From: Escherichia coli O157 typing phage 13
DNA length: 64,000 bases
Sequence record: KP869111
Strand: one strand, 5' to 3'
The first letter of the stretch is position 1. Every line of letters starts with the position of its first letter. Both the position numbers and the translations under genes were made by a program. Shown here piece after piece: positions 2,329 to 61,009 of this stretch. The notes below the pieces were generated by a model. The model saw nothing but the letters and a program-made list of their open reading frames with translations, made no database searches and was not told the origin of the DNA.

Positions 2329-3327
2329 TTATGATACTAATTCAATCCATGCAGGACGCAGAACATCTTGCACCATTCGGACTAATTCTTTCTTAACAAG
2401 ATTCGGATTATCGGATGATGTTAATACAATACCTTCACGAGAAGTTTCTTCCAGAATATCTTGAACAGTCAATCCCATCACTTTGCCAAAATCTTTTGGC
2501 GTTACAGTCCCAATCTTAGAAATCACATTATTAACACGGTTTAATGTAACATAACAAGCTAGGACATCAAGCAAGTTTTTGTCAATTTCGGTTAATGGAA
2601 CCTGAGTTTTAATAGGCTTATCAGACTTTTTCTTTTCACTGAATTTAGAGTTCTTACACTTAATAGCTACACGAGTACCGTTTGGCAGCCATTTAGGGAA
2701 ACAAGGCTTCAGAACATAACCTTCTGCTGTATTATCACCAATAACATTAGCATCAAATACGCAATTATTTGCTTCGACAAGGTCTTCTGACGCAGTAGCA
2801 TTATAAGCGGCTAAGACGGAATCAAGGTCGTTTGGAATCATGATAAGAGCATCAAATGTGCCACGACCAAGCATTGGTGCCATTTTAAAACCGAATTCAT
2901 TACAGAAATCTTGCATTTCGTAATCAGTCAAATACGTATTATCACCACTTTCTGTATTGATAATGATATCGAACACATAAAAATCTTTTTCACCGTAGTC
3001 AACACCTTTCTGGATTCCACCACCAGCGAATTCACCGAATACTTGATATGATACGGCTCGAGCTGTGTACATGAATTCCTGAACGGCTTTAATAGCTTTA
3101 TCATACTTCTTGAGTACGATTTCATAACCATAAAAATCTTCTGCTGGAAGAATAGGGCCTGTGCGCTTGGCGCATGTGACGTTGTCACGTTCAATAATTA
3201 AACTAAAGTTGGTCCCATGGATTTTCTCACGTGCTACCCAAACACCAGTAGTCAAACCATTAGTGTAGAGTTTTTCAATAAACTTAGAGTTGTAGTGGTT
3301 TTCAAGACTGCTGTATTTCTTAAACAT
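2329..3327 (-). CDS. rnlB: RNA ligase 2 (Rnl2)
   Basis: 332 aa; N-terminus [21 protein letters not shown]... and the ligase motif [11 protein letters not shown] with the adenylylation lysine match T4 Rnl2. Confidence 0.95.
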
Positions 3328-3446
3328 AAATCACCATTATAAATAATAATATCAAAATAATTAGCAGAGACTCTGTCTCCGACCCGATGTTTAATTTGAA
3401 TGGATAGAACCTAGATTCATTATACCATCAAAAAATGTAAAGCATA

Positions 3447-3698
3447 TTAGAACTTGATTTCTATCCAATGCCCATCACGTTGGTCATGATTAATTTTGTA
3501 CTGAAAGCCGTTATCACGAAGCCATTGACCGACTTGCTCGGTGATAGTTAAATCATTCTTTGATGGATAGTACGTGAATTGTGTCTGGCCTTTGTCAGCG
3601 GCTTTCTCTGCCATCACAGAGAAGTTAGTAATAAAATCACTCAACAAATTGGCTTTAGTGGCCAGAGCCCTTTCTCTTAATTCCTGTGCAAAACTCAT
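3447..3698 (-). CDS. Hypothetical protein (T4 24.2 position)
   Basis: 83-aa ORF, tightly packed between rnlB and hoc as in T4. Confidence 0.5.
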   Translation of the reverse strand: MSFAQELRERALATKANLLSDFITNFSVMAEKAADKGQTQFTYYPSKNDLTITEQVGQWLRDNGFQYKINHDQRDGHWIEIKF

Positions 3699-3895
3699 TT
3701 CTTCACCTTTTTGTTAATCAAACGTTTACGGTATACAACTTTTTCTTTTGCTTTAAACTTTGACCGAGCTGTCTCGGCTTTAGTCCATAGTAATCCAACT
3801 TCTTTAGGTTGTAAACCGATTTTTTGAGCAATTTCTACGAATGAAAATCCCGCCTCATGTAATGTATAAACTTCAACTTCAGCTCTCATAATCAA
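3695..3895 (-). CDS. Hypothetical small protein with HTH-like segment (T4 24.3 position)
   Basis: 66-aa ORF overlapping the next gene by 4 nt; basic C-terminus. Confidence 0.5.
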   Translation of the reverse strand: MIMRAEVEVYTLHEAGFSFVEIAQKIGLQPKEVGLLWTKAETARSKFKAKEKVVYRKRLINKKVKK

Positions 3896-3961
3896 TCCAG
3901 TATTATTTGGTTTGTGCCATTATATACATCAATCTCAAGATGTGTTTTGTATGCTTTAAAA

Positions 3962-3986
3962 ACGAAGAAAGGGGCCGAAGCCCCTT
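3962..3986 (-). terminator. Stem-loop terminator downstream of hoc
   Basis: GGGGC-CGAA-GCCCC hairpin followed by U-rich tract on the minus strand. Confidence 0.5.
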
Positions 3987-3990
3987 ACGA

Positions 3991-5406
3991 TTATGGATAT
4001 GTATAGATGATACCAGTTTCTAAAGCAGTTTTATGGATGATGTATCCATTACGTGATTCTTGAACATCAACTTCTGGATAGTCTTTCATCATCTTCTGAA
4101 GAGTGTAACGATGCAGGTAGTATTTACTATCTGGATCGTCAATTTTCCAATCTTTACCTTCTTCAGTCATTTTTTGTATTTCATCCATAACCCACCAACC
4201 GCACCAGATGTAAGCTGAAGTACGATGTGGAAGAGGATGAACATAAGGTAATTCACCTTCTGGTTCAATTGGAGTCCGTTCAGCAATAACAACTTCAGCG
4301 GTTGAACTAATTGTCTTTGAAGTATAATTATCTTTAGTTAATACTGCTTCAACTTTAATTGTATGAGTACCCGCTGAGGAGGTATCAATACTGTAAGTAT
4401 TGGTAGAATTACTTTCTGCTACGTTGTCTTTCTTCCAAGAATATACAATATTAGTATCACCTGGAGCACCAGTAACAGATGCTGTTAAAGTTGCAGTTCC
4501 ACCAACAGTAGTATTAACTGATGGCGGAGATAAAGAAATGGTGGCACTATTAAATGTCGCATTATTAGTTACTACTGTTGCTTCTGCTGAAATTTCTTTT
4601 GTAACATAATCTGTTGCAGAAACAGATACGGTGCATTTAAGAGTTTTACTTCCGACCTCGGTTGGAGTGAATTTATACGTAGCAGAAGTTGCATCCGGAA
4701 TATTACTGTCATCCATTGACCACTGGAATGATGTAGTAGCACCTGGAGGTGCACTAGAGACATTTGCAGTTAAAGTAATAGGAACACCAAAGACCGTAGT
4801 CGGAGACTCAGGCGTAATTTTTAGTGTTGAAGAATTAGCCTTTTTATTTACAGTCAAAGAAACCGCTGATGATTCTACTGTTTTATCAACGTAATCAGTT
4901 GCAGTCACTGTGACAGAACAAGTTATAGACTTAGTTCCTTCGGATGTTGGTATATATTCAAAGGTTGATTGCTTTTGACCATCAACAGCGACCCCGTCAA
5001 CTTTCCATGTATAAGCAATAGCAGCACCACTAGGTTGATTGCTTACATTAGCAGTGAATGTTGTTGCTGTTCCAATTTCTACTGCCGCCGGAGAAGCCGG
5101 AGTAACAGCGACGGTAGAATTATTTTCTTTCTTATTAACAGTGATAGTTGTTGACGCTTCAGCTATTTCCGGATCTCCTGCGGAAAGTGTATTAGTTGCA
5201 ACCACTTTAATTTTTTTTGTTCCTGCTGGAGAAGCAAGAGTATAATCCATTGTAGCAGCCGTAGAATCCTGTGCTATATCATCTACAGTCCAGACGTATG
5301 TAATAGTACCATCCGGAGTTTCACCTGCAGGTGTAGCAGTGAATGTTTGTGAACCTCCAATAACCCCTGTAGGAGTTATTGGAGATAACGTGACAGTGAA
5401 TGTCAT
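3991..5406 (-). CDS. hoc: Highly immunogenic outer capsid protein Hoc (extended form, about four Ig-like repeats)
   Basis: N-terminus MTFTV...TFTATP and C-terminal capsid-binding tail ...PEGELPYVHPLPHR...TALETGIIYTYP match T4 Hoc; 471 aa versus 376 in T4. Confidence 0.9.
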   Translation of the reverse strand: MTFTVTLSPITPTGVIGGSQTFTATPAGETPDGTITYVWTVDDIAQDSTAATMDYTLASPAGTKKIKVVATNTLSAGDPEIAEASTTITVNKKENNSTVAVTPASPAAVEIGTATTFTANVSNQPSGAAIAYTWKVDGVAVDGQKQSTFEYIPTSEGTKSITCSVTVTATDYVDKTVESSAVSLTVNKKANSSTLKITPESPTTVFGVPITLTANVSSAPPGATTSFQWSMDDSNIPDATSATYKFTPTEVGSKTLKCTVSVSATDYVTKEISAEATVVTNNATFNSATISLSPPSVNTTVGGTATLTASVTGAPGDTNIVYSWKKDNVAESNSTNTYSIDTSSAGTHTIKVEAVLTKDNYTSKTISSTAEVVIAERTPIEPEGELPYVHPLPHRTSAYIWCGWWVMDEIQKMTEEGKDWKIDDPDSKYYLHRYTLQKMMKDYPEVDVQESRNGYIIHKTALETGIIYTYP

Positions 5407-22333: not shown

Positions 22334-22451
22334 NNNNNNNNNNNNNNNNNNNNNNNNNNNNNNNNNNNNNNNNNNNNNNNNNNNNNNNNNNNNNNNNNNN
22401 NNNNNNNNNNNNNNNNNNNNNNNNNNNNNNNNNNNNNNNNNNNNNNNNNNN
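22334..22451. other. Run of 118 N (assembly gap or mask)
   Basis: Unresolved bases; minus-strand reading frame stays open across the join. Confidence 0.99.
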
Positions 22452-22467: not shown

Positions 22468-23082
22468 CTACTTAACGAAATTAATTTCTACCGGATGAAC
22501 GACAGGTTGAGCAGTGATATATTGAGTAATTGCTTTCATGACTAGAGCTTCAGAACCAGGATTTTTCTCAACGAATTCACGTGCTTGGTTATGAGCTTCA
22601 AGTTCACTTAGTAAACCACTTCGTTGGCATCCACGGTCTTGAGTACCCTGTTCAGATAAAAAGACGACGATGTATTTTTCATCGTCATACGGTTTAGACG
22701 GTTGAGCAAATGTTCCTTTACTTCCGAAAGGAGAGTTATGACGCCACATATCGCCGTGAGGAGTTTCAACCTTCGTATATTCGTGCGGGCCATTTTTCTT
22801 AATTTCTTGATGTGGAACTTCATAGATCTTAGGGTTAGGACATTCAATAAAATGCTCATCTAAATCAGTCGAGAATATTAAAGTAAAACAATTACTGAAT
22901 TTACCGACACCTGCCTGATAAATTTTACCTTCAGAAGTTCTAATTTCACAAACTGAGCCGGCATCAGTAACTTCTAAAACTTCAAAAGGCTCGATAAGGT
23001 CATATGAGAACATGTTTTTAAGGCGTGGAGTAATATCCCCATTTTTAAAATTCATTTTATAAAAAGTATTAACTTTAAACAT
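22468..23082 (-). CDS. Hypothetical 204-aa protein
   Basis: ORF with SD GAGGAA; preceded by intercistronic GGGAGC-CGAA-GCUCCC stem-loop. Confidence 0.6.
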   Translation of the reverse strand: MFKVNTFYKMNFKNGDITPRLKNMFSYDLIEPFEVLEVTDAGSVCEIRTSEGKIYQAGVGKFSNCFTLIFSTDLDEHFIECPNPKIYEVPHQEIKKNGPHEYTKVETPHGDMWRHNSPFGSKGTFAQPSKPYDDEKYIVVFLSEQGTQDRGCQRSGLLSELEAHNQAREFVEKNPGSEALVMKAITQYITAQPVVHPVEINFVK

Positions 23083-25266: not shown

Positions 25267-25575
25267 TTACATAAGAAGCAAACGTTCTACCGGAGTACCA
25301 TCAACCGAAATTACTTTATCAAGGCGGAAAGAACGCCACTGGCCTAACTTGGTATCGAATGCTCGAACTGATTCACGAGGTTCAGAACGAACTTCTGTTG
25401 CCGGATTGTTATTTTCATATTTGACTTCAAGTTCATCACGCGAAGCAAACATAGTGCGTACCTCGCCGTTAGCCTTTTCAAATACAACACAATGAACGCC
25501 TACAGACAGAATAGTTTTAATACGTTCACGAAGAACCATAGTTTCTTGTTCAGTTAAAATCATATTATTCACCAC
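25267..25575 (-). CDS. Hypothetical 102-aa protein (T4 31.1/31.2 position)
   Basis: ORF between cd and gene 31, overlapping the cd stop. Confidence 0.5.
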   Translation of the reverse strand: MVNNMILTEQETMVLRERIKTILSVGVHCVVFEKANGEVRTMFASRDELEVKYENNNPATEVRSEPRESVRAFDTKLGQWRSFRLDKVISVDGTPVERLLLM

Positions 25576-26146
25576 AAAAGTTTCGGATTTGTTCCCAATT
25601 CAGAGAACGAAGATTATTACGAGAGTACTGAATTACTTCAATACCGGCTTGTTTTAGAATGTCTGCCCAATTTTCAGGAGATCTGTCATATAATTCTGCG
25701 TATACAACCTTTTTAATACCTGACTGTGTAATAGCTTTAGTGCAATCAGGACATGGAGAAAGTGTCGTATACAACGTAGCACCTTCAATAGAATTACCTT
25801 TACGAGCTGCAAACAAAATTGCATTCAGTTCCGCATGGATTTCGTTATTAGCGGACCATGCACTATGAGCAGCCCGATGTTCTTTAGCCAAAACAAAATT
25901 ATCCACCCGTCCAAATGCTGTAGTGCCTTCTTTATGCCCAGCAACGATGACCGGGCTTGGTTTATTCTTCAACCAACCGTTTTCGGATGCATGTTCACAA
26001 CAGTTAACACCACCGGCCGGGCTACCGTTATACCCAGTAGAGATAATGCGTCCATCTTTTTCAATGACGGCACCAACTTTCCATGAACAACATTTTGATT
26101 CTTGAGAAATCAAATAAGCAATTTGAAGATATGTGCTAGCTTTCAT
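25565..26146 (-). CDS. cd: dCMP deaminase
   Basis: 193 aa as in T4; zinc-binding deaminase motifs HAELNA and PCxxC. Confidence 0.93.
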   Translation of the reverse strand: MKASTYLQIAYLISQESKCCSWKVGAVIEKDGRIISTGYNGSPAGGVNCCEHASENGWLKNKPSPVIVAGHKEGTTAFGRVDNFVLAKEHRAAHSAWSANNEIHAELNAILFAARKGNSIEGATLYTTLSPCPDCTKAITQSGIKKVVYAELYDRSPENWADILKQAGIEVIQYSRNNLRSLNWEQIRNFCGE

Positions 26147-27138
26147 TATTGAACCTTATTAATATAAGTTAACAGCTCTTTAGTTTGTTCCCAACTGATG
26201 CACGCATCGGTAACGGAAACGCCATAGGACATATTATCAGAAATTTTTTGATTTCCTTCATGTAGGAATGATTCTATCATAATTCCTTTGACCAAATCAT
26301 TAGCTGCTAAATTTTTACCAATACCAATTTGATTGCTATAATGCCCATCAGCGTTTGCATGGCTACAGTCAACCATTACATAATGATTCAGACCTACTGC
26401 CCTTGCTTTGTTAGAAGCTTCTTGAATATCAGAAGAATGATAGTTCGGGCCGTTGGTCCCGCCACGCAATACGATATGCGTATTCTGATTACCTTCAGCT
26501 TCAACAATGCCTACAGTACCATCGACGTCCATACCCATATACCGATGAGGCCAGGCGGCACTATACATCGCGTCTGTAGCTACTTTAATAGAACCATTGG
26601 TTGCGTTCTTGAAGCCTACGCACATCGGTAGACCTGAAGCAATTTCACGATGTGTCTGACTTTCAGTCGTACGGGCGCCAATAGCAACCCATGAGAAAAT
26701 ACCAGAAAGATACTTAATCGTGAATGGGTCTAATACTTCAGTTGCTAATGGAAGTCCCATACGTAGAAGTTTACGACACAATGTTCGTGCAACTATAAGA
26801 CCGTGGTTCATATCAAAACTTCCGTCAAGATATGGATCATTTACAAGACCTTTCCAACCTACGGTAGTTCGAGGCTTTTCAAAATAAACGCGCATCACTA
26901 ACAGAACATTAGGAAGACGAGTTTGAAGTTCAGCCAGACGTTTGCCGTATTCAACAGCAGCAATAGGGTCATGAATTGAACAAGGACCTACAACAATAAG
27001 TTTGCGTGGGTCTTCACCGTTCATAATCGAATTAACTTGTTCGCGATGAGAAGCCACTTGTGATGCGTAAGCTTCCGACAAAGGAATAATCTCAGCCAGT
27101 TCTTTTGGAGAAATAAGTTTTCCGACGACAGGTAACAT
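26146..27138 (-). CDS. 3-deoxy-D-arabino-heptulosonate-7-phosphate (DAHP) synthase, class I (AroF/AroG-like)
   Basis: 330 aa; signature RVYFEKPRTTVGWKGLVNDP, IGARTTESQTHRE, VGFKN, YGVSVTDACISWE shared with E. coli AroF/AroG; SD TAAGGA; ATGA coupling to cd. Confidence 0.88.
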   Translation of the reverse strand: MLPVVGKLISPKELAEIIPLSEAYASQVASHREQVNSIMNGEDPRKLIVVGPCSIHDPIAAVEYGKRLAELQTRLPNVLLVMRVYFEKPRTTVGWKGLVNDPYLDGSFDMNHGLIVARTLCRKLLRMGLPLATEVLDPFTIKYLSGIFSWVAIGARTTESQTHREIASGLPMCVGFKNATNGSIKVATDAMYSAAWPHRYMGMDVDGTVGIVEAEGNQNTHIVLRGGTNGPNYHSSDIQEASNKARAVGLNHYVMVDCSHANADGHYSNQIGIGKNLAANDLVKGIMIESFLHEGNQKISDNMSYGVSVTDACISWEQTKELLTYINKVQ

Positions 27139-27258
27139 AACAATCCTTAGGAGATATAAACAGATTCTGATTCAACAATACCTTTAACCGGATTAGACAG
27201 GCTAAGTTGGTAGTGCTCAGATTTATGACCATTCTCGATAGTAATGAGATAGCTCTCA

Positions 27259-27495
27259 TTATAGTGTTCCATATACTCGAGTTGCTTCAACAAGACCATC
27301 ACTGCCTAATTTAAGATTAGTAATTTGGTCACCATCTTTAGGATTAACGATTATGAGAAAAGAACGTGGAGATTCTTGAATAACTCGTAATGTTGCATCT
27401 TGGAAACGTTCAGACACTTTATTGATGAGTGCTTGAGCAAATTCTTTTACTTTAATCTGAAATTCGTGTACTGTAATTGGGTTTTCACTTAGCAT
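27259..27495 (-). CDS. Hypothetical 78-aa protein
   Basis: ORF with early promoter upstream; T4 cd.x position. Confidence 0.5.
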   Translation of the reverse strand: MLSENPITVHEFQIKVKEFAQALINKVSERFQDATLRVIQESPRSFLIIVNPKDGDQITNLKLGSDGLVEATRVYGTL

Positions 27496-27514: not shown

Positions 27515-27553
27515 GGTAGAGTTATAGTATCACAACTCCACCATGTTGTAAAC
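27515..27553 (-). promoter_or_regulatory. T4-type early promoter with inverted-repeat arms around -10
   Basis: Minus strand GTTTACaacatGGTGGAGTTgtgaTACTATAACTCTACCaac. Confidence 0.5.

Positions 27554-28234: not shown

Positions 28235-28235
<1 letters not shown>
28044..28235 (-). CDS. Hypothetical 63-aa acidic protein
   Basis: ORF with ATGA-type overlap to the pseT stop. Confidence 0.45.
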
Positions 28236-29299
<1,064 letters not shown>

Positions 29300-42966: not shown

Positions 42967-43066
42967 NNNNNNNNNNNNNNNNNNNNNNNNNNNNNNNNNN
43001 NNNNNNNNNNNNNNNNNNNNNNNNNNNNNNNNNNNNNNNNNNNNNNNNNNNNNNNNNNNNNNNNNN
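42967..43066. other. Run of 100 N at the junction between the two syntenic blocks
   Basis: Unresolved bases; sequence after it belongs to a different gene and to the opposite T4 orientation. Confidence 0.99.
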
Positions 43067-43494: not shown

Positions 43495-44486
43495 ATGATG
43501 TTAGTTATTGGTTCTCGTGCACTTCACTATCACGGTCTTATTGATTCTAGCGCTATTAAAAATAGTGATTGGGACTTTATTGCGGACCAAGGTTCTTGGA
43601 ATGCATTCAAAAATCAAATGATGGGTGTATATGTTCACCAAGATAACCCTGATGTCCAAGTTTTCAAATGCTTCCATAATGGACGCGAAACTCATTTTGA
43701 AGCATATATTGTTCCGGCAATCACTAATGTCCGTGAATTAGTCGGTGAACTCACTCCTGAAGATTTCACGTCTTCTTATGACCTTTTAAAATACGCCAAG
43801 AAAAATTTGACTAAAGACCGTTTGAACGGGTTTTACTGGGCAACTCCTGAGATATGTCTTGCAATTAAGATGTCTCATCGTTTCAAGAAAAATAATCCAT
43901 TCTTTTTAAAGACTATGAACCATATTCAGTATCTTCGTGGTAAAGGTGTTACACTTAACGATGAACTTACTGAAATTATGCTGAAACGNNNNNNNNNNNN
44001 NNNNNNNNNNNNNNNNNNNNNNNNNNNNNNNNNNNNNNNNNNNNNNNNNNNNNNNNNNNNNNNNNNNNNNNNNNNNNNNNNNNNNNNNNNNNNNNNNNNN
44101 NNNNNNNNNNNNNNNNNNNNNNNNNNNNNNNNNNNNNNNNNNNNNNNNNNNNNNNNNNNNNNNNNNNNNNNNNNNNNNNNNNNNNNNNNNNNNNNNNNNN
44201 GAAGTTTGAATCACTTCCGGAAATGGTCAAATTGGCCGGTGTATATGAAGAAACATGTGTACTAGCGTTAGAACGTTCTCAGATTCCTAATGGCTTTGAA
44301 ATCCATCCTCGTGATAGTTTTATGATGGCATTAGAAAAGGTCTGTACTTCAATCACATCAGGCTGGTTCCGTGAGTATGCCTGGGAGAACTATGGCAAAG
44401 TAGTAAGTATGTATCAAAGCTTAGGACACGACGATTACGTCAAGCGTTTCAAACAAAATTTTCATATGGTAAAACCTTTCAAATAA
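43495..44486 (+). CDS. Hypothetical protein of about 259 aa, interrupted by an N-run (43989-44200)
   Basis: SD GAGGAAAAT before ATG; 5' and 3' parts are in frame if the N-run has zero real length. Confidence 0.5.
43989..44200. other. Run of 212 N
   Basis: Unresolved bases inside a CDS; flanks join in frame when the N are removed. Confidence 0.99.
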
Positions 44487-44924: not shown

Positions 44925-45024
44925 NNNNNNNNNNNNNNNNNNNNNNNNNNNNNNNNNNNNNNNNNNNNNNNNNNNNNNNNNNNNNNNNNNNNNNNNNNNN
45001 NNNNNNNNNNNNNNNNNNNNNNNN
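44925..45024. other. Run of 100 N
   Basis: Unresolved bases at the 5' boundary of the rIIA homology. Confidence 0.99.
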
Positions 45025-49985: not shown

Positions 49986-51394
49986 ATGCAATTGAATTCT
50001 CGTAATCTAAAAAGTATTATTGATAACGAAGCCTTAGCATATGCGATGTACACCGTTGAAAACCGTGCAATCCCAAACATGATTGATGGATTTAAGCCGG
50101 TTCAACGTTTTGTGGTCCATCGTGCGTTAGATTTGGCTCGTGGTAATAAAGAAAAATTTCATAAACTTGCGTCAATTGCAGGCGGTGTTGCAGATTTAGG
50201 TTATCACCATGGTGAATCTTCTGCACAAGATGCAGGTGCATTGATGGCTAACACATGGAACAACAACTATCCACTGTTAGATGGCCAAGGCAACTTTGGT
50301 TCTAGAACAGTCCANNNNNNNNNNNNNNNNNNNNNNNNNNNNNNNNNNNNNNNNNNNNNNNNNNNNNNNNNNNNNNNNNNNNNNNNNNNNNNNNNNNNAA
50401 AGCTGCAGCATCTCGTTATATTTTTGCTCGTGTAAGTAAAAATTTCTATAACGTATATAAAGATACTGAATATGCTCCAGCTCATGAAGATAAAGAACAC
50501 GTTCCACCAAAATTCTATCTTCCTATTATTCCGACAGTTCTTTTGAATGGTGTATCTGGTATTGCAACCGGTTACGCAACAAATATTCTGCCTCATAGTT
50601 TTAAATCGGTAAAAAAGGCTGTATTACAAGCTCTTCAAGGTAAAAATGTCACTAAGCCAAAAGTTGAATTCCCGGAATTCCATGGTGAAGTACATGAAGT
50701 TGATGGGCGTTATGAGATTCACGGAACATATAAGTTCACATCTCGCACTCAAATGCAGATAACTGAAATCCCATATAAATTCGACCGTGAAACGTATGTG
50801 AGTAAGGTTCTTGACCCGTTGGAAGACAAAGGTCTAATCTCATGGGAAGATGATTGTGGTGAACACGGCTTTGGGTTTAAGGTGAAGTTCCGTAAAGAGT
50901 ACTCGCTTCCTGATGATGAAGAGCTACGTCATGAAAAAATCATGAAAGATTTTAGTCTCATCGAACGTCGTTCACAAAACATCACAGTGATTAATGAAAA
51001 GGGTAAATTAGCAGTCTACGATAACGTAGTGGACTTAATCAAAGATTTTGTTGAAGTCCGTAAGACTTACGTTCAGAAACGTATTGACAACAAAATCCTT
51101 GAATCTGAAAAAGCATTTAAACTGGCTTTTGCTAAGGCACACTTCATCAAAAAAGTTATCAACGGTGAAATCGTGATTCAGGGCAAGACTCGTAAAGCTT
51201 TGACTGAAGAGCTAGCACAAATCGAAATGTATAAAGAACATGTCGATAAACTGGTAGGTCTTAACATCTTCCATATCACTTCCGATGAAGCACGTAAACT
51301 AGCAGAAGAAGCTAAAGCTAAGAAAGAAGAAAATGAGTATTGGAAGTCTACTGATGTTGTGACAGAGTACACTAAAGACTTGGAGGCACTTTGA
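49986..51394 (+). CDS. 52: DNA topoisomerase II medium subunit gp52, interrupted by an N-run (50315-50398)
   Basis: Both halves recognised as T4 gp52 (GyrA-like); halves sum to about 441 aa versus 442 in T4, so the 84 N stand for only about 1 nt. Confidence 0.9.
50315..50398. other. Run of 84 N inside gene 52
   Basis: Flanking codons are off by one frame, consistent with about 1 missing base rather than 84. Confidence 0.99.
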
Positions 51395-55598: not shown

Positions 55599-58500
55599 TT
55601 ATGCTAAACGAACGATATAGTTAAAAGCAACGTTTTTAACTGTGTTTTCTGTATTTCCTGTGGCATTTACAGTTATTGTATGTCCATGGGAACCAATTGC
55701 AACAGTATGAGAATGAGCACCAATACCTACCGAATGGGTATGAGCACCAATACCCACAGTATGAGCATGGTTACCTGTGGTACTTGTGGTTCCTGACCAA
55801 GAGTGTGTATGGTTACCTTCTGAAGAAGTTTTGGCTATATTCGACCCTGCAGTAGCACCGTTCACGGTTCCAGTGAATTTAGCGTTGGCGTTTGCACCTA
55901 CACTATTATATCCGTCATAGAATATGTTATTGGGTATGCCAGCTTGTATCTGAGGACCTGAGCGCGCATGTTGGTGGTTACCTGCAGCACTTGTAGTTCC
56001 ACNNNNNNNNNNNNNNNNNNNNNNNNNNNNNNNNNNNNNNNNNNNNNNNNNNNNNNNNNNNNNNNNNNNNNNNNNNNNNNNNNNNNNNNNNNNNNNNNNN
56101 NNNNNNNNNNNNNNNNNNNNNACCGTATGGTTATGGTTACCTGTGGTATTACTGGTTTTAGTACCATAATCAAAGCTTGAAGATGTTTTAGTACCATAAT
56201 CAAAGCTTGATGTGGTTTTAGTACCTAAATCAGTATTAGATGCTGAAGCACTATGGTTATGAGACTTAATACCATCAGCTTCTGTACTTAATACATCACG
56301 CCCAGATGGTTTACCTTTAATCGTCTGACCACGCATATCGGGCAGAGTGCCGGAAGGATACACCGCAGCTAACTTAGGATACAAGCCAGTATCAAATGTT
56401 TGACCTTCCATTATGGCATAACCTTCAGGAGGTGTATCAGTAGGCCAAGGAATCGGAGCACCAATAGGATAACTTGAGACAATATCTGTCTTAAGGTTAT
56501 TTATTGTGGTATTCAAGTTAGCAAAATTACCAGAACCGCCGGTGATATTACCATCAGTACCAATACGAACATTACCAGCGCCTAATTTACCAGGAGAGTA
56601 NNNNNNNNNNNNNNNNNNNNNNNNNNNNNNNNNNNNNNNNNNNNNNNNNNNNNNNNNNNNNNNNNNNNNNNNNNNNNNNNNNNNNNNATCACCGTTTTTA
56701 TTAAATTCCCAACCTAAATCCTTTATAATTGCGCCAGTAGAAACGCCGTCACCACCTTCGTGATAGTGAACTCTAAAGTTACCACCATTAATTAAAGTAC
56801 CAATAGAATAGCAACTATTATTTTGAACGTATCTTTGTTTCACAATAGGAACATAAGTGCTTGTATCTGTTCTATCAATATTCATATAGAACGGAGCACG
56901 AACGTTTTCATTATTCTGAGAAGCAAAAGAACCGGCTCCAGCAGGTCGTGCAGTATCAGTACATTCAGCGTCGATATATGCCGATTGTCCTAATTGCATA
57001 CGGTAATTAGGAGAAATGCGACTATGACTAGTTATAACAACAAGTTTATTATCATTATCAACGGTCACCATATTACCGCCAGCACCATCATCACCTAACG
57101 TAACAGAATGGCGCATTTGAACCATACCGTTGTTAAGAGAAACACTCAATGGGCGAAGGTTAGAAATACCACCATTTTCACCTGCATCTTTAAGTGTAGG
57201 TATAATATGCAAAGACGCTTCAGAACGACGGAAAATAGCTCCATATTCAGCATTGTAAATACGGAAAGCATCTGCGGTATTGCCGATTTTAACTTGACCG
57301 GTAATAGAACCACCGCCGGATAAAACAAGCCCGTTATCCATAGTAACTTGTCCGGATAATGTACTTAATCCATTAACTCTAAGACTTCCATCGGTGATAA
57401 TGCTCCCTCTTGCATTCAGTTGTCCATTAATTTGTGTTACAACAGGTCCCACAGTTTCTGAACCGGTTGGAGCTACGCGCTGAGAATAAAAATAATATCC
57501 CTGGCCGTCAGCTACTTCAAAAACTGTTTCACGATTACGATCGCCAGATGCGTTAAATGAATTACCCCATGCTTTAACAGTTACATAGCTTTTATTCTGA
57601 CCAGCACGAGTACCGCCTTCCCACAAAATTTGCTTAGTGCCATCAATTGTAGTAGTTGGAGCGAATGTTAGCCCAGCAGTAGAATTATTAGCTGCTAAAT
57701 ATATGCCGTTATATATTGAAAGCTGCTTAACAGATGTAATACCGCCATCAGCATAAAACATTACATTATTAGAGCCAGTTACTAGTTTAAGAATACCCGG
57801 GTTAATTTCCATACCTTGTTGGGTATTGATATTCATCTGACCTGTACCACGGAAATAGTGGTTCATTTTACCACCAGCATTGTACCCGATATGGGTTTGT
57901 CCGTCTCCAGCATTGTTATTATCAGCTTGTGTTTGAACAGACAAGAGAGCAGCATTTGTACCAGGCATAATCCATGTGGTGCCTTGGTCCTCGGAACGAC
58001 CAAATATACCTTTACGAGTACTACGGAAACTGTCAGGAGTAATAGAAGCAACAGAATTCCAATTACCTACTAAATCATAAACACCCTGCTTAATGTATTT
58101 TAAACCAGTGGCAGCATCACCCAAAGCAATATATCTTTCTCCCATTGGAGTAGGAGAGCCGTAGTTATTGGTATTTTCATCAGTGGTAATTGTGCCAATA
58201 GCAAGTGAACGACGTAATACCATTGCGCCATCATTACGAAGACCCATTAATTTAGTAGTAAGTGTATTTCCGGTCCACCAAGAAATTTCATCATTCTTAC
58301 CAGTTTGAGCTGAAGCGATTTCATGGTAAATAGTTCCACCTGATTTAGCTCGAACTTTACGAAGATAGTTTATACCATTTTCTTCACCTGTTCCAGGATA
58401 AACATATTGAACTAATGACTGTGAATCATATTGTCCGAATGCTTTTGTGTCTAAAACAATGGTTTTCGTATTAACTTGTGGAGCAGAAACTATACCATTA

Positions 58501-59817: not shown

Positions 59818-61009
59818 TTATTCTGGTGCTTCTTTAAATTCTTGACCAAATACCTTACCAGTATCAGTTGAAGATTGAGTAGGTAATGTCATTATGTCTG
59901 GAGCACTTAAAGATTCTGAAACATAATTTACACGAATACCATTCGTACCAAACTCAGCAGGTTTTGAAACGCTTCCATTACATGATACTTCAGTGAATAT
60001 AACGTTTCTTAATCCACCTTGCCCGACTGGAGCTGTACGATAACAATAAATCGTGAACCCGTCAGCACCAGCAGGAATTTCTACGTAGTCTTCATATATC
60101 TTCCATTCACCTGCAGCCCCATCAAAGTTTATATCCTTAAATGAAATAGGTGAAGTAGAAGGAGATTTAAAGAAACGAATAGAAAGTCGTGTCGTCCCTT
60201 GTGCTAACAAATCGGCATCGGCCATTAGTTGGAATTTCATATAAAGGAAATCTCCAGGCTTCAATTTATACCCAGCGAGAGGTGTAATAACAGATGCTGT
60301 AGGCATCCTTTTAATTTCGTTATTAGTACCTCCAATGGCAGATAAAAATGTGTCTGACGATTCATACGTACGTCTAGGGAAGCCGGTAGCACCAATATCA
60401 TCGATCGTGTCGTACACAACATCAAGTGGTGTACTATAGTCGGTTGAAGTTTTCTTATTACTATACTTAATATGTTCTAGTGCTATAGCATTCTTACCAG
60501 AAATATAAAATGCAGAATAAGAAATGTCCACTATATTTAAAACTTGTTGAGCTAATGGAATAGCAGAACTCCCAGCTTTAGTAAACCATGCAAGAACTTC
60601 TGGTGGAAAGTTTGTTTTAGCGTTAGTAACAAGAGCAAATATAAAATTTGAAGCATATGTGTCCATGAAAGTAACAAATGCACTTGACGTGGCGTCGTTT
60701 TCAGTAGAGAAATTATATGTCTTAGATTCAACTACTGCACCTGTTGTAGGATTTATTACACGAACGTTTAATCCAACGGAAAAAACCTGGGACCCAAGTG
60801 GATTATCCTGGAACTTAATATAAGCAGGAGATGTTGATNNNNNNNNNNNNNNNNNNNNNNNNNNNNNNNNNNNNNNNNNNNNNNNNNNNNNNNNNNNNNN
60901 NNNNNGGGCAAGAGCCCGCTATGCTTAATTTAAATCGTACTGAATTGCTTTCCGATAAAAATGGCGTTTGGACGTATCCTTGTCCAAACTTAGCCATAAA
61001 TTTTTCCAT
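59818..61009 (-). CDS. 35: Long tail fiber hinge protein gp35 (N-run inside)
   Basis: MEKFMA...LSESNSVRFK... start and position between 34 and 36; the two parts join in frame if the 67-N run is removed (about 374 aa versus 372 in T4). Confidence 0.85.
60839..60905. other. Run of 67 N inside gene 35
   Basis: Unresolved bases; zero-length join restores the frame. Confidence 0.99.

Follow-up and report, generated by a model that had tools for sequence, protein, structure and literature searches.

The stretch of DNA analyzed here, 64,000 nucleotides from Escherichia coli O157 typing phage 13 (KP869111; hereafter the window), comes from a Mosigvirus (RB69-like) and contains an apparent DAHP synthase gene between the phage genes cd and pseT. 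Why does a T4-like phage carry such an enzyme, which catalyzes the committed step of aromatic biosynthesis, and does it still obey the feedback control of its bacterial relatives? The initial annotation had placed a 330-aa ORF with the motifs RVYFEKPRTTVGWKGL, IGARTTESQTHRE and YGVSVTDACISWE at positions 26146-27138 between these two genes, which both the ORF listing and Pfam confirmed, and had suggested a profile search, a phylogeny and an inspection of the feedback residues. Its statement that T4 has only cd.1 to cd.5 at this locus was borne out by the T4 record. The features of the region are:

25565..26146, minus strand: cd, dCMP deaminase (193 aa), recognized by Pfam dCMP_cyt_deam_1 and sequence.
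26146..27138, minus strand: DAHP synthase gene, an ATG-initiated ORF of 330 aa plus stop; putatively type I-alpha and AroF-like with a remodelled allosteric pocket, according to the ORF listing and profile and structure matches.
26146..27258, minus strand: 1113-bp segment that the window has and RB69 lacks, defined by pairwise alignment of the two.
27142..27146, minus strand: Shine-Dalgarno (SD) sequence AAGGA of the DAHP synthase gene, 5 nt upstream of the ATG, read from the sequence as ...ctccTAAGGAttgttATG.
27147..27272, minus strand: 41-aa ORF (phrog_15876) with partial matches to PHROG and Pfam DUF7320.
27259..27495, minus strand: cd.2 (DUF7320, 78 aa), 121 bits against Pfam DUF7320 and 96% identical to RB69 cd.2.
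27524..27552, minus strand: early-promoter-like site between cd.3 and cd.2, found by consensus scan (TTTACA, 17-nt spacer, TG-extended TACTAT).
28235..29134: pseT, with HAD_PNKP and AAA_33 domains.

The DAHP synthase and cd reading frames overlap by a single nucleotide in the sequence TAATG, in which the TAA stop codon occupies positions 26148-26146 and the cd ATG positions 26146-26144. An overlap had thus been described correctly, its form (ATGA with a TGA stop) incorrectly. The gene does have its own SD sequence, as had been claimed. This SD sequence overlaps the stop codon (TAA) of the 41-aa ORF, as had also been noted, but the coordinates given for that ORF, 27125-27250, were wrong. Phages ST0, ZQ3 and NicPhage have the 41-aa ORF annotated, and RB69 lacks it.

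Database searches placed the phage protein firmly among the DAHP synthases. It matched Pfam DAHP_synth_1 (PF00793) with 252 bits (cut-off 25.5), TIGR00034 (aroFGH) with 428 bits (cut-off 173) and NF009395 (PRK12755 model) with 455 bits (cut-off 343). The scores for the isozyme-specific NCBIfam models of AroG (NF006723, 363 bits; cut-off 568) and AroH (NF009396, 386 bits; cut-off 463) fell below their cut-offs. PHROG 5045 was matched with 606 bits, residues 1-330 aligning to profile positions 8-337 of 341, and E. coli AroF (6agm, 354 bits) was the top sequence match in the PDB. The AF2 model of the protein (pLDDT 90.8, pTM 0.91) displayed a (beta/alpha)8 barrel with an internal beta-hairpin extension (strands 198-203 and 209-214), and Foldseek superimposed this model on N. 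meningitidis and E. coli DAH7PS with a TMq of 0.95 and an rmsd of 1.5 A. As judged from sequence and modelled fold, the window protein is a type I-alpha DAHP synthase of AroF-like character, and the original description as a full-length class I enzyme with canonical motifs holds.

All residues expected in the active site are in place. C53, H260, E289 and D311 of the window protein correspond to Cys61, His268, Glu302 and Asp326 of AroG, the metal ligands in the AroG structures. The residues contacting PEP and erythrose-4-phosphate (E4P) are present as R83, K88, P89, R90, T91, G154-A155-R156, K177 and R225 (AroG R92, K97, P98, R99, T100, G163-A164-R165, K186 and R234), including the KPRT motif. 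A loss of catalytic residues, which had been named as an argument for a non-enzymatic role, was not seen, the 14 metal, PEP and E4P positions (14/14) being invariant in all 29 phage sequences compared. The phage enzyme is therefore predicted to be catalytically active, converting PEP and E4P to DAHP and Pi.

Among characterized enzymes, Tyr-sensitive E. coli AroF (PDB 6AGL/6AGM) is the natural reference. The two proteins are 51% identical over their full length, share the catalytic and substrate residues and the beta-hairpin insertion, and both have Gly where AroG has S211, the Tyr/Phe selectivity position, and Pro where AroG has M147. The phage protein differs in being 26 aa shorter: approximately the first nine residues (AroF numbering) are missing, the C-terminus is shorter and, unlike AroF, it has a deletion of 3-5 residues at AroG positions 289-293. 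Moreover, Pro151-Gln152 of AroF are replaced by Ile-Lys, Asp156 by Gly, Ser181 by Pro, Phe210 by Tyr and Thr224 by Ala.

Comparison of 98 bacterial homologues with the 29 phage sequences revealed that these substitutions are shared across the phage clade. Six of 111 columns conserved in the bacterial proteins (at least 95%) were replaced clade-wide in the phages (at least 90%), and five of the six belong to the inhibitor pocket or adjoin it: Q151K, D155G, S180P, F209Y and T223A in AroG numbering, or Lys142, Gly146, Pro171, Tyr200 and Ala214 of the window protein. The sixth, Q288, has drifted to N/A/L/I/H/D/S. Position 151 is K in 28/29 phage and Q in 98/98 bacterial sequences, and position 180 is P in 29/29 phage and S in 97/98 bacterial sequences. 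Tyr at position 209 occurs in 29/29 phage sequences, and Pro150 is exchanged for Ile in 28/29. The combined signature I-K-G-P-Y-G-A is confined to T4-like loci, whereas bacterial homologues and those from giant-virus MAGs display the canonical P-Q-D-S-F-G-T. Asp146, Leu179, Val221 and the beta-hairpin are kept in the phage enzymes. The five replacements (K, G, P, Y and A) do not vary within a clade whose members are down to about 55% identity, a pattern that a new, constrained role of the site would explain no worse than simple loss. A further position, the tetramer-interface salt bridge (AroG E24-R124; N. meningitidis E27-R126), was considered because the window protein has Ile in place of the Arg, and was set aside as uninformative since this column varies in bacteria and phages alike.

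The N-terminus is shortened throughout the clade. No counterpart of AroG residues 1-8 exists in 29/29 phage sequences, and the PCSIH motif is preceded by 47-51 residues in the phages versus at least 57 in the 98 bacterial sequences. Shumilin et al. (2002) are said to have assigned AroG Asp6/Asp7 a specific role in feedback; the literature searched contained nothing on N-terminal feedback mutants, AroF N8K included. The Phe site is built by the N-terminal extension together with the beta-hairpin (PMC4735112).

The feedback residues are thus replaced in the phages, and several of the affected positions are known from engineering. Q151/Q152 and S180/S181 touch the inhibitor main chain, D155 stabilizes the inhibitor site, and feedback-resistant enzymes were obtained from P150L, S180F and F209A/S (PMC9529685). 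Compared with AroG P150L, S180F, Q151 variants and F209A/S and with C. glutamicum AroF P155L/I, Q159A and S188F, the phage clade is naturally substituted at the same positions (P150I, Q151K, S180P, F209Y; PMC9529685). It differs in the replacement residues chosen and in combining several changes with an N-terminal deletion. As laboratory variants such as Q159A and S188F are unstable or weakly active, compensatory changes may be among those of the phage clade. These clade-wide changes suggest a naturally evolved, stable and deregulated DAHP synthase which, if this is true, could serve the production of aromatic compounds.

The presence of the gene in the window adds nothing in itself. It is an ordinary constituent of T4-like genomes, annotated in about 180 of them, and the novelty implied by the initial annotation does not stand: 212 phage records matched the protein, all covering at least 80% of it and 100 at 99% identity or more, and its PHROG 5045 is flagged as an auxiliary metabolic gene. 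The identical protein appears in dozens of GenBank phage records under the labels DAHP synthase, AroF or AroG. PHROG 5045 members and GenBank phage genes for 'phospho-2-dehydro-3-deoxyheptonate aldolase' are the same gene in the same position upstream of cd, for example Shigella phage Shf125875 gp195, aroF of O157 typing phages 3/6, phiC120 ORF64 and the gene of Klebsiella phage KLB31. The slot upstream of cd is occupied in at least five genera (Mosigvirus, Kanagawavirus, Winklervirus, Marfavirus and Bragavirus); the window copy is 100% identical to many Mosigvirus records and 59-77% identical to the copies of the other four. Of about 150 Mosigvirus-type records, 139 contain the gene and 11, RB69 included, do not; T4 and the dhakaviruses also lack it, T4 having cd.1 in that slot. 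The gene is dispensable, since RB69 and about six other mosigviruses, T4 and dhakaviruses manage without it. These natural null alleles and near-isogenic carriers make its role easy to test. Two papers name the phage DAHP synthase or AMG at the level of annotation only (PMC8022965, PMC11845039), and no functional study (assay, expression or knockout) of any member was found in the literature searched. As far as that literature shows, the gene is known and annotated and apparently uncharacterized; for PHROG 5045-type genes it gave no description of a remodelled allosteric pocket or of a recombinational origin in Mosigvirus.

Where did the gene come from? In a neighbor-joining (NJ) tree the phage proteins formed one clade (100/100 bootstraps), whose sister group mixed 42 AroF-type sequences, mostly from proteobacteria, and did not single out a donor lineage. 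Bacterial proteins reach at most 55% identity, and the nearest (52-55%) belong to several phyla. Together with the Gly at the Tyr/Phe selectivity position, this would fit a single ancient acquisition of an AroF-type bacterial gene by the phage lineage; the gene has probably become a settled member of the early pseT-cd cluster in many genera of T4-like phages (Straboviridae). The view that it is diverged and not a fresh host fragment proved correct. Homology alone would speak for a piece of host aroF/aroG taken up recently or for a bacterial contamination of the assembly, and one cluster representative is labelled 'Escherichia coli', yet this one lies on a phage-sized contig of 170,875 bp. Identity to E. 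coli AroG, AroF and AroH is only 47, 51 and 44%, respectively; its codon usage has become phage-like, with a GC content of 41% and a GC3 of 30% versus 52% and 51% in E. coli aroF; and the gene is embedded among phage genes with a coupled stop/start and recurs identically in many independent phage isolates. Host capture or contamination is already refuted by these data and retains practically no probability.

The Mosigvirus copy seems to have a more recent history of its own. In the alignment of the window with RB69, the 1113-bp segment is flanked by a direct repeat that copies the start of cd imperfectly, ATAATGA(G/A)AGCTA(T/G)C(T/A)CAT. In addition, the 41-aa ORF aligned more closely with the C-terminal halves of cd.2 homologues from Kanagawavirus and Marfavirus than with the cd.2 of the window itself. 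By this alignment the 41-aa ORF is what remains of the C-terminal half of a foreign cd.2/DUF7320 gene imported along with the DAHP synthase, and as such marks an import by phage-phage recombination. The copy would have been gained by recombination with another T4-like phage, an event of which the donor cd.2 relic remains at one border and a crossover at the start of cd at the opposite border.

Expression of the segment can be predicted from its surroundings. The promoter-like site aligns with the region of the T4 early promoter Pe133295, which the T4 record places between cd.2 and cd.3. Consensus scanning of promoters was at chance overall (23 sites versus 24.8 expected), as was the terminator scan, and only this site, orthologous to a T4-annotated early promoter, was retained; its designation as a putative early promoter is by homology alone. 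cd.2 is predicted to be the first gene of the early transcription unit. The DAHP synthase gene would probably be transcribed early from this conserved T4-type promoter, and translated from its own SD sequence in coupling (TAATG) to cd.

We consider it probable that the phage acquired an AroF-type gene, expresses it early and produces an active enzyme whose rebuilt allosteric site has made it insensitive to feedback. The active site is intact while the type I-alpha allosteric machinery appears rebuilt: residues at the N-terminus that close over the inhibitor are deleted, and its main-chain binders Gln151 and Ser180 are fixed as Lys and Pro, next to P150I, D155G and F209Y. Because inhibitor-site residues are replaced and the N-terminus is deleted, we propose an escape from feedback; Tyr, Phe and Trp are predicted not to inhibit the phage enzyme, a loss inferred from substitutions at known positions. 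It would keep condensing PEP and E4P when these amino acids are abundant, a situation in which the host isozymes would be feedback-inhibited, repressed and not resynthesized after infection. The outcome would be unregulated chorismate for aromatic amino acids and/or for folate and quinones during infection. The channelling of PEP and E4P into the shikimate pathway, suggested from the outset, is the most reasonable candidate function. The same pocket may instead have been re-targeted and bind a different effector, for instance a nucleotide, an intermediate of the folate or chorismate pathway or a protein of the phage; shikimate entry would then follow the state of infection. The five replacement residues are (near-)invariant among 29 phage sequences otherwise 55-98% identical, whereas the Q288 column has drifted; the beta-hairpin is kept, as is most of the pocket wall, the exchange of Gln for Lys adds a positive charge, and the enzyme encoded by the neighboring cd gene is allosterically activated by hm-dCTP/dCTP (T4 record). 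However, no ligand is positively supported, the invariance could equally reflect a need of the tight-dimer interface after loss of the N-terminal strap, and Pro180 and the N-terminal loss both remove main-chain binding groups from the pocket. We regard re-targeting as unlikely, and as slightly less likely still the specific proposal that Lys142, Gly146, Pro171, Tyr200, Ala214 and the short N-terminus sense a nucleotide, folate-pathway metabolite or phage factor that couples the chorismate/folate branch to phage DNA synthesis. Should either deregulation or re-wiring hold, the phage enzyme would show neatly how a virus can rid a captured host enzyme of its allosteric control or redirect that control.

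Two other readings place the benefit elsewhere or deny it. Consumption of the substrates could itself be useful, draining E4P so that the non-oxidative pentose-phosphate reactions are pulled towards pentose phosphates for nucleotides, and PEP so that sugar uptake and glycolytic flux change. Its neighbors do serve nucleotide and DNA metabolism: cd and pseT in T4-like phages, and a thymidylate kinase and a topoisomerase IB-like gene on a related 262-kb viral contig (L030). No other shikimate-pathway gene lay beside it at any locus examined. This argument is one of gene neighborhood, and T4-like early regions mix unrelated functions; besides, a DAHP synthase free of regulation would raise chorismate anyway if it feeds an intact host pathway, the two effects being inseparable in silico. 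We find this reading improbable, and slightly more improbable that the gene hitch-hikes in a recombination-prone Mosigvirus region as a dispensable, neutral or decaying passenger without a significant role in infection. The natural mosigviruses lacking it, RB69 among them, and the recent recombinational import of the segment are compatible with a passenger. Copies within Mosigvirus are only 1-7 nt apart, and the changes are mostly non-synonymous (4-7 versus 0-2 synonymous in pairs differing by more than one base), with a dN/dS of about 0.6-1.8 based on too few changes to be informative, so that purifying selection cannot be demonstrated within this genus. Between genera, on the other hand, dN/dS is 0.13-0.24 and the catalytic residues are invariant, the 212 records contain no frameshift or stop, and the position is conserved in the five or more genera, with 139 Mosigvirus-type records keeping the gene.

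Homologues of the deregulated enzyme that we propose also occur in other viral sequence collections. Matches of 45-48% identity named 'Acinetobacter phage MD-2021a' were set aside as bacterial contigs with clpA, bioH and fadH, and 'Bacteriophage sp.' faecal contigs (about 35% identity), unverified and unannotated, were left out. Giant-virus MAG and other IMG/VR homologues, which are viral-binned, belong to type I-alpha and have kept their catalytic residues, as in the phage. Those on GVMAG-named contigs, 38-48% identical to the phage enzyme, have canonical inhibitor-site residues and a full-length N-terminus, and are separate acquisitions or binning contaminants. The exceptions are L030 and a further contig, L031, which share S180P and F209Y with the T4-like clade and group with it in 47/50 bootstraps.

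The initial annotation described a 330-aa DAHP synthase between cd and pseT, and an ORF of this length containing all three quoted motifs is present in the window at the coordinates given. The genome is that of a Mosigvirus (RB69-like), in which four small ORFs separate pseT from the DAHP synthase ORF.

Features of the pseT-cd region in the window
25565..26146 (-), cd, downstream of DAHP synthase, Pfam dCMP_cyt_deam_1
26146..27138 (-), DAHP synthase ORF, 330 aa, ATG start, from the ORF listing of the window
27092-27259 (-), 55-aa ORF, its start ATG overlapping the cd.2 stop
27147..27272 (-), 41-aa ORF, its stop overlapping the DAHP synthase Shine-Dalgarno (SD) sequence
28235..29134, pseT, upstream of DAHP synthase, HAD_PNKP and AAA_33

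An AAGGA SD sequence is located 5 nt before the DAHP synthase ATG. The stop codon TAA (26148-26146) has one base in common with the cd ATG (26146-26144), so that the junction reads TAATG and not ATGA as first proposed. The reported overlap of the 41-aa ORF with the SD sequence was confirmed for its stop, but its coordinates had to be corrected from 27125-27250 on the minus strand. Shigella phage Shf125875 shows the same gene order and encodes an identical DAHP synthase from a gene differing by one synonymous site. RB69 cd (locus L005, 9743-10252) is annotated with 169 aa as compared to 193 aa for cd of the window and of T4; RB69 and window cd have a common ATG start, and the RB69 gene as annotated stops about 72 nt earlier.

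The assignment as type I-alpha DAHP synthase was borne out by family models and structure. The protein matched Pfam DAHP_synth_1 with 252 bits and exceeded the cut-offs of NCBIfam TIGR00034 (aroFGH equivalog, 428 bits) and PRK12755 (455 bits), while it fell below those of the AroG- and AroH-specific NCBIfam models. Identity to E. coli AroG, AroF and AroH was 47, 51 and 44%, respectively, and the closest solved structure by sequence was the Tyr-sensitive E. coli AroF (6AGM, 354 bits). An AlphaFold2 model built from a 56-sequence alignment (pLDDT 90.8, pTM 0.91) superimposed on DAH7PS structures of N. meningitidis and E. coli with a TM score of 0.95 and an rmsd of 1.5 Å. All 14 metal, PEP and E4P ligands of AroG are present in the window protein and invariant in 29 phage homologues, and the loss of catalytic residues considered initially was not observed. 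The window carries an intact, conserved and phage-adapted type I-alpha DAHP synthase gene, which has its own SD sequence and is coupled to cd.

The supposed novelty of the gene did not withstand database comparison. A tblastn search of 50,697 phage records detected it in 212, all with at least 80% protein coverage (100 at ≥99% identity and 39 at 95-99%). GenBank labels vary between phospho-2-dehydro-3-deoxyheptonate aldolase, AroF, AroG and DAHP synthase, and the gene has its own family, PHROG 5045, in the class 'moron, auxiliary metabolic gene and host takeover'. Five genera have the gene in the same slot, upstream of cd and downstream of both pseT and the small cd.x ORFs, namely Mosigvirus, Kanagawavirus (Entb_45, 77% identity), Winklervirus (LC53, 69%), Marfavirus (F48, 67%) and Bragavirus (phiP4-3, 59%). 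One small ORF in Winklervirus and two in Bragavirus lie between DAHP synthase and cd, the first having the size of cd.1, which occupies the DAHP synthase slot in T4. In the literature we looked for a functional study of a phage DAHP synthase and found annotation-level mentions only, namely phiC120 ORF64 (PMC8022965) and Klebsiella phage KLB31, whose authors hypothesise an aid to aromatic amino-acid supply (PMC11845039). The gene is already known as a widely annotated but experimentally uncharacterised auxiliary metabolic gene.

Two records deserve comment. CAKLQF020000008.1 (L010, 'Acinetobacter phage MD-2021a') carries clpA, ynfA, bioH, fadH and a normal aroF, and looks like a bacterial contig wrongly labelled as phage. 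Shigella phage JK45 (L014, NC_054940.1) is recorded as Tequatrovirus; its pseT-cd region, with the cd.2 relic (the 41-aa ORF) and a DAHP synthase of 98.5% identity, is Mosigvirus-like, so that either the genome is mosaic or its taxonomic label is wrong.

RB69 has an empty slot, in which the stop of cd.2 and the start of cd overlap. A probe across this junction gave an undivided match in 20 records, 11 of Mosigvirus type (≥94% identity) and the rest mostly dhakaviruses (about 78%), and was split into two places in 139, the same number as records with the protein at ≥95% identity. This puts the share of sequenced Mosigvirus-type genomes with the gene at about 93%. Relative to RB69, 1113 bases are extra in the window, and they are bounded by an imperfect direct repeat derived from the start of cd. 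The left copy of this repeat is the start of the 55-aa ORF, which begins with MRAIS..., a diverged version of the MKAST... that opens cd; this ORF is probably a recombination scar and not a gene. The 41-aa ORF in the same segment has a match to DUF7320, the family of cd.2, over its C-terminal half only, and aligns more closely with Kanagawavirus and Marfavirus cd.2 homologues (SYLITIE...ES.SVY) than with the window's own cd.2. Within Mosigvirus, divergence is 0-1.2% in the block of cd.4, cd.2, the relic and DAHP synthase, compared to 4-6% in flanking cd and 2.5-5.7% in pseT. From the low block divergence, the repeat-bounded insert and the affinity of the relic we conclude that the gene reached the mosigviruses recently, through recombination with a different T4-like phage in which one crossover fell inside cd.2 and the other at the cd start, and that the block later spread within the genus. 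Among six Mosigvirus phages the gene differs by 1-7 nucleotides, mostly non-synonymous.

The ultimate origin appears to be older. In a search of 5.8 billion proteins, the first approximately 24 clusters (55-98% identical, 319-343 aa) were phage proteins or located on phage-sized contigs, whereas bacterial matches from several phyla were all at most 55% identical (341-388 aa). Neighbour-joining analysis of 127 sequences united the 29 phage proteins in a single clade in 100 of 100 bootstraps, with a mixed, mostly proteobacterial AroF-type group as sister. GC (41.4%) and GC3 (29.7%) are similar to those of cd and pseT, the values for E. coli aroF being 52% and 51%. dN/dS between genera was 0.13-0.24, which are upper bounds as synonymous sites are saturated. 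Taken together, clade, bacterial identity, GC3 and dN/dS indicate that the gene was acquired once, long ago, and has since been kept in phage genomes by purifying selection. A recent host fragment, already disfavoured in the initial annotation, is refuted.

Columns at least 95% conserved in 98 bacterial homologues and replaced in at least 90% of the 29 phage proteins were sought without prior assumptions. Six of 111 conserved columns emerged (AroG numbering): Q151K, D155G, S180P, F209Y, T223A and Q288, which is variable in the phage clade. Moreover, 28 of the 29 phage proteins have Ile for Pro150, none of the 29 has a counterpart of AroG residues 1-8, and 47-51 residues precede the PCSIH motif as compared to ≥57 in bacteria. 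In AroG/AroF, Gln151/Gln152 and Ser180/Ser181 hold the inhibitor main chain, Asp155 stabilises the inhibitor site by a salt bridge, and P150L, S180F and F209A/S render AroG feedback-resistant (PMC9529685). In type I-alpha enzymes, allosteric control resides in the N-terminal extension together with the β-hairpin (PMC4735112). Judging from the numbering, Thr223 should lie on the same hairpin strand as Val221 (V221A is feedback-resistant), two residues further on. The clade-specific changes thus cluster at the inhibitor pocket and leave the active site unaltered. This remodelled pocket is the sole result that goes beyond existing annotation.

Among 78 viral-contig homologues (IMG/VR), the I-K-G-P-Y-G-A signature was confined to T4-like loci, whereas the many homologues from giant-virus MAGs kept the canonical P-Q-D-S-F-G-T and the full N-terminus. 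Dozens of the latter contigs (L034-L097) carry type I-alpha homologues, 38-48% identical, with intact catalytic and canonical inhibitor-site residues; they may be truly viral or else binning contaminants. A 261,788-bp contig of an uncultivated, jumbo-sized virus (L030, IMGVR_UViG_3300028829_003504) encodes a DAHP synthase at 2956-4005, between a topoisomerase IB-like gene and thymidylate kinase. In 47 of 50 bootstraps it comes out, together with contig L031, as sister to the T4-like clade. It shares S180P, F209Y and the 'TNG' insertion, but keeps Pro150 and a longer N-terminus. Its position and shared substitutions therefore place the start of pocket remodelling before the T4-like radiation.

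By homology, DAHP synthase would be transcribed early: a promoter-like site (27552..27524, minus strand) aligns with the T4 cd.3-cd.2 interval, to which early promoter Pe133295 is assigned in the T4 record. The substitutions predict an enzyme insensitive to Tyr, Phe and Trp, which would for this reason feed PEP and E4P to the host shikimate pathway whatever the aromatic amino-acid levels. Speculatively, the useful product might be aromatic amino acids that supply protein synthesis late in infection or, as suggested only by the neighbouring genes, chorismate-derived folate for phage thymidylate synthase/dCMP hydroxymethylase chemistry. The replacement residues are themselves invariant, as would suit an allosteric site that is re-targeted rather than dead, although we regard this as unlikely. 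That the enzyme acts as a substrate sink drawing pentose-phosphate flux, which in silico is not separable from product supply, seems distinctly improbable. A dispensable passenger is supported by phages that naturally lack the gene and by the kind of substitutions seen within the genus; it is contradicted by cross-genus conservation, and we give it very little credence. Loss of feedback control through the remodelled site is a concrete and cheaply testable hypothesis.

The window contains eight N runs totalling 887 bases (22334-22451, 42967-43066, 43989-44200, 44925-45024, 50315-50398, 56003-56121, 56601-56687 and 60839-60905), which are masked stretches or assembly gaps. They interrupt ORFs, e.g. 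in the tail-fibre region at about 42-45 kb, and leave the DAHP synthase finding untouched. Immediately beside one of them, a 204-aa ORF (22468-23082, minus strand) has no Pfam match and a full-length match to phrog_17531 (function unknown). It belongs to the gene 30.x region, the place of the short gene 30.6 in Shf125875 and RB69, and represents a further variable slot of the same early region.
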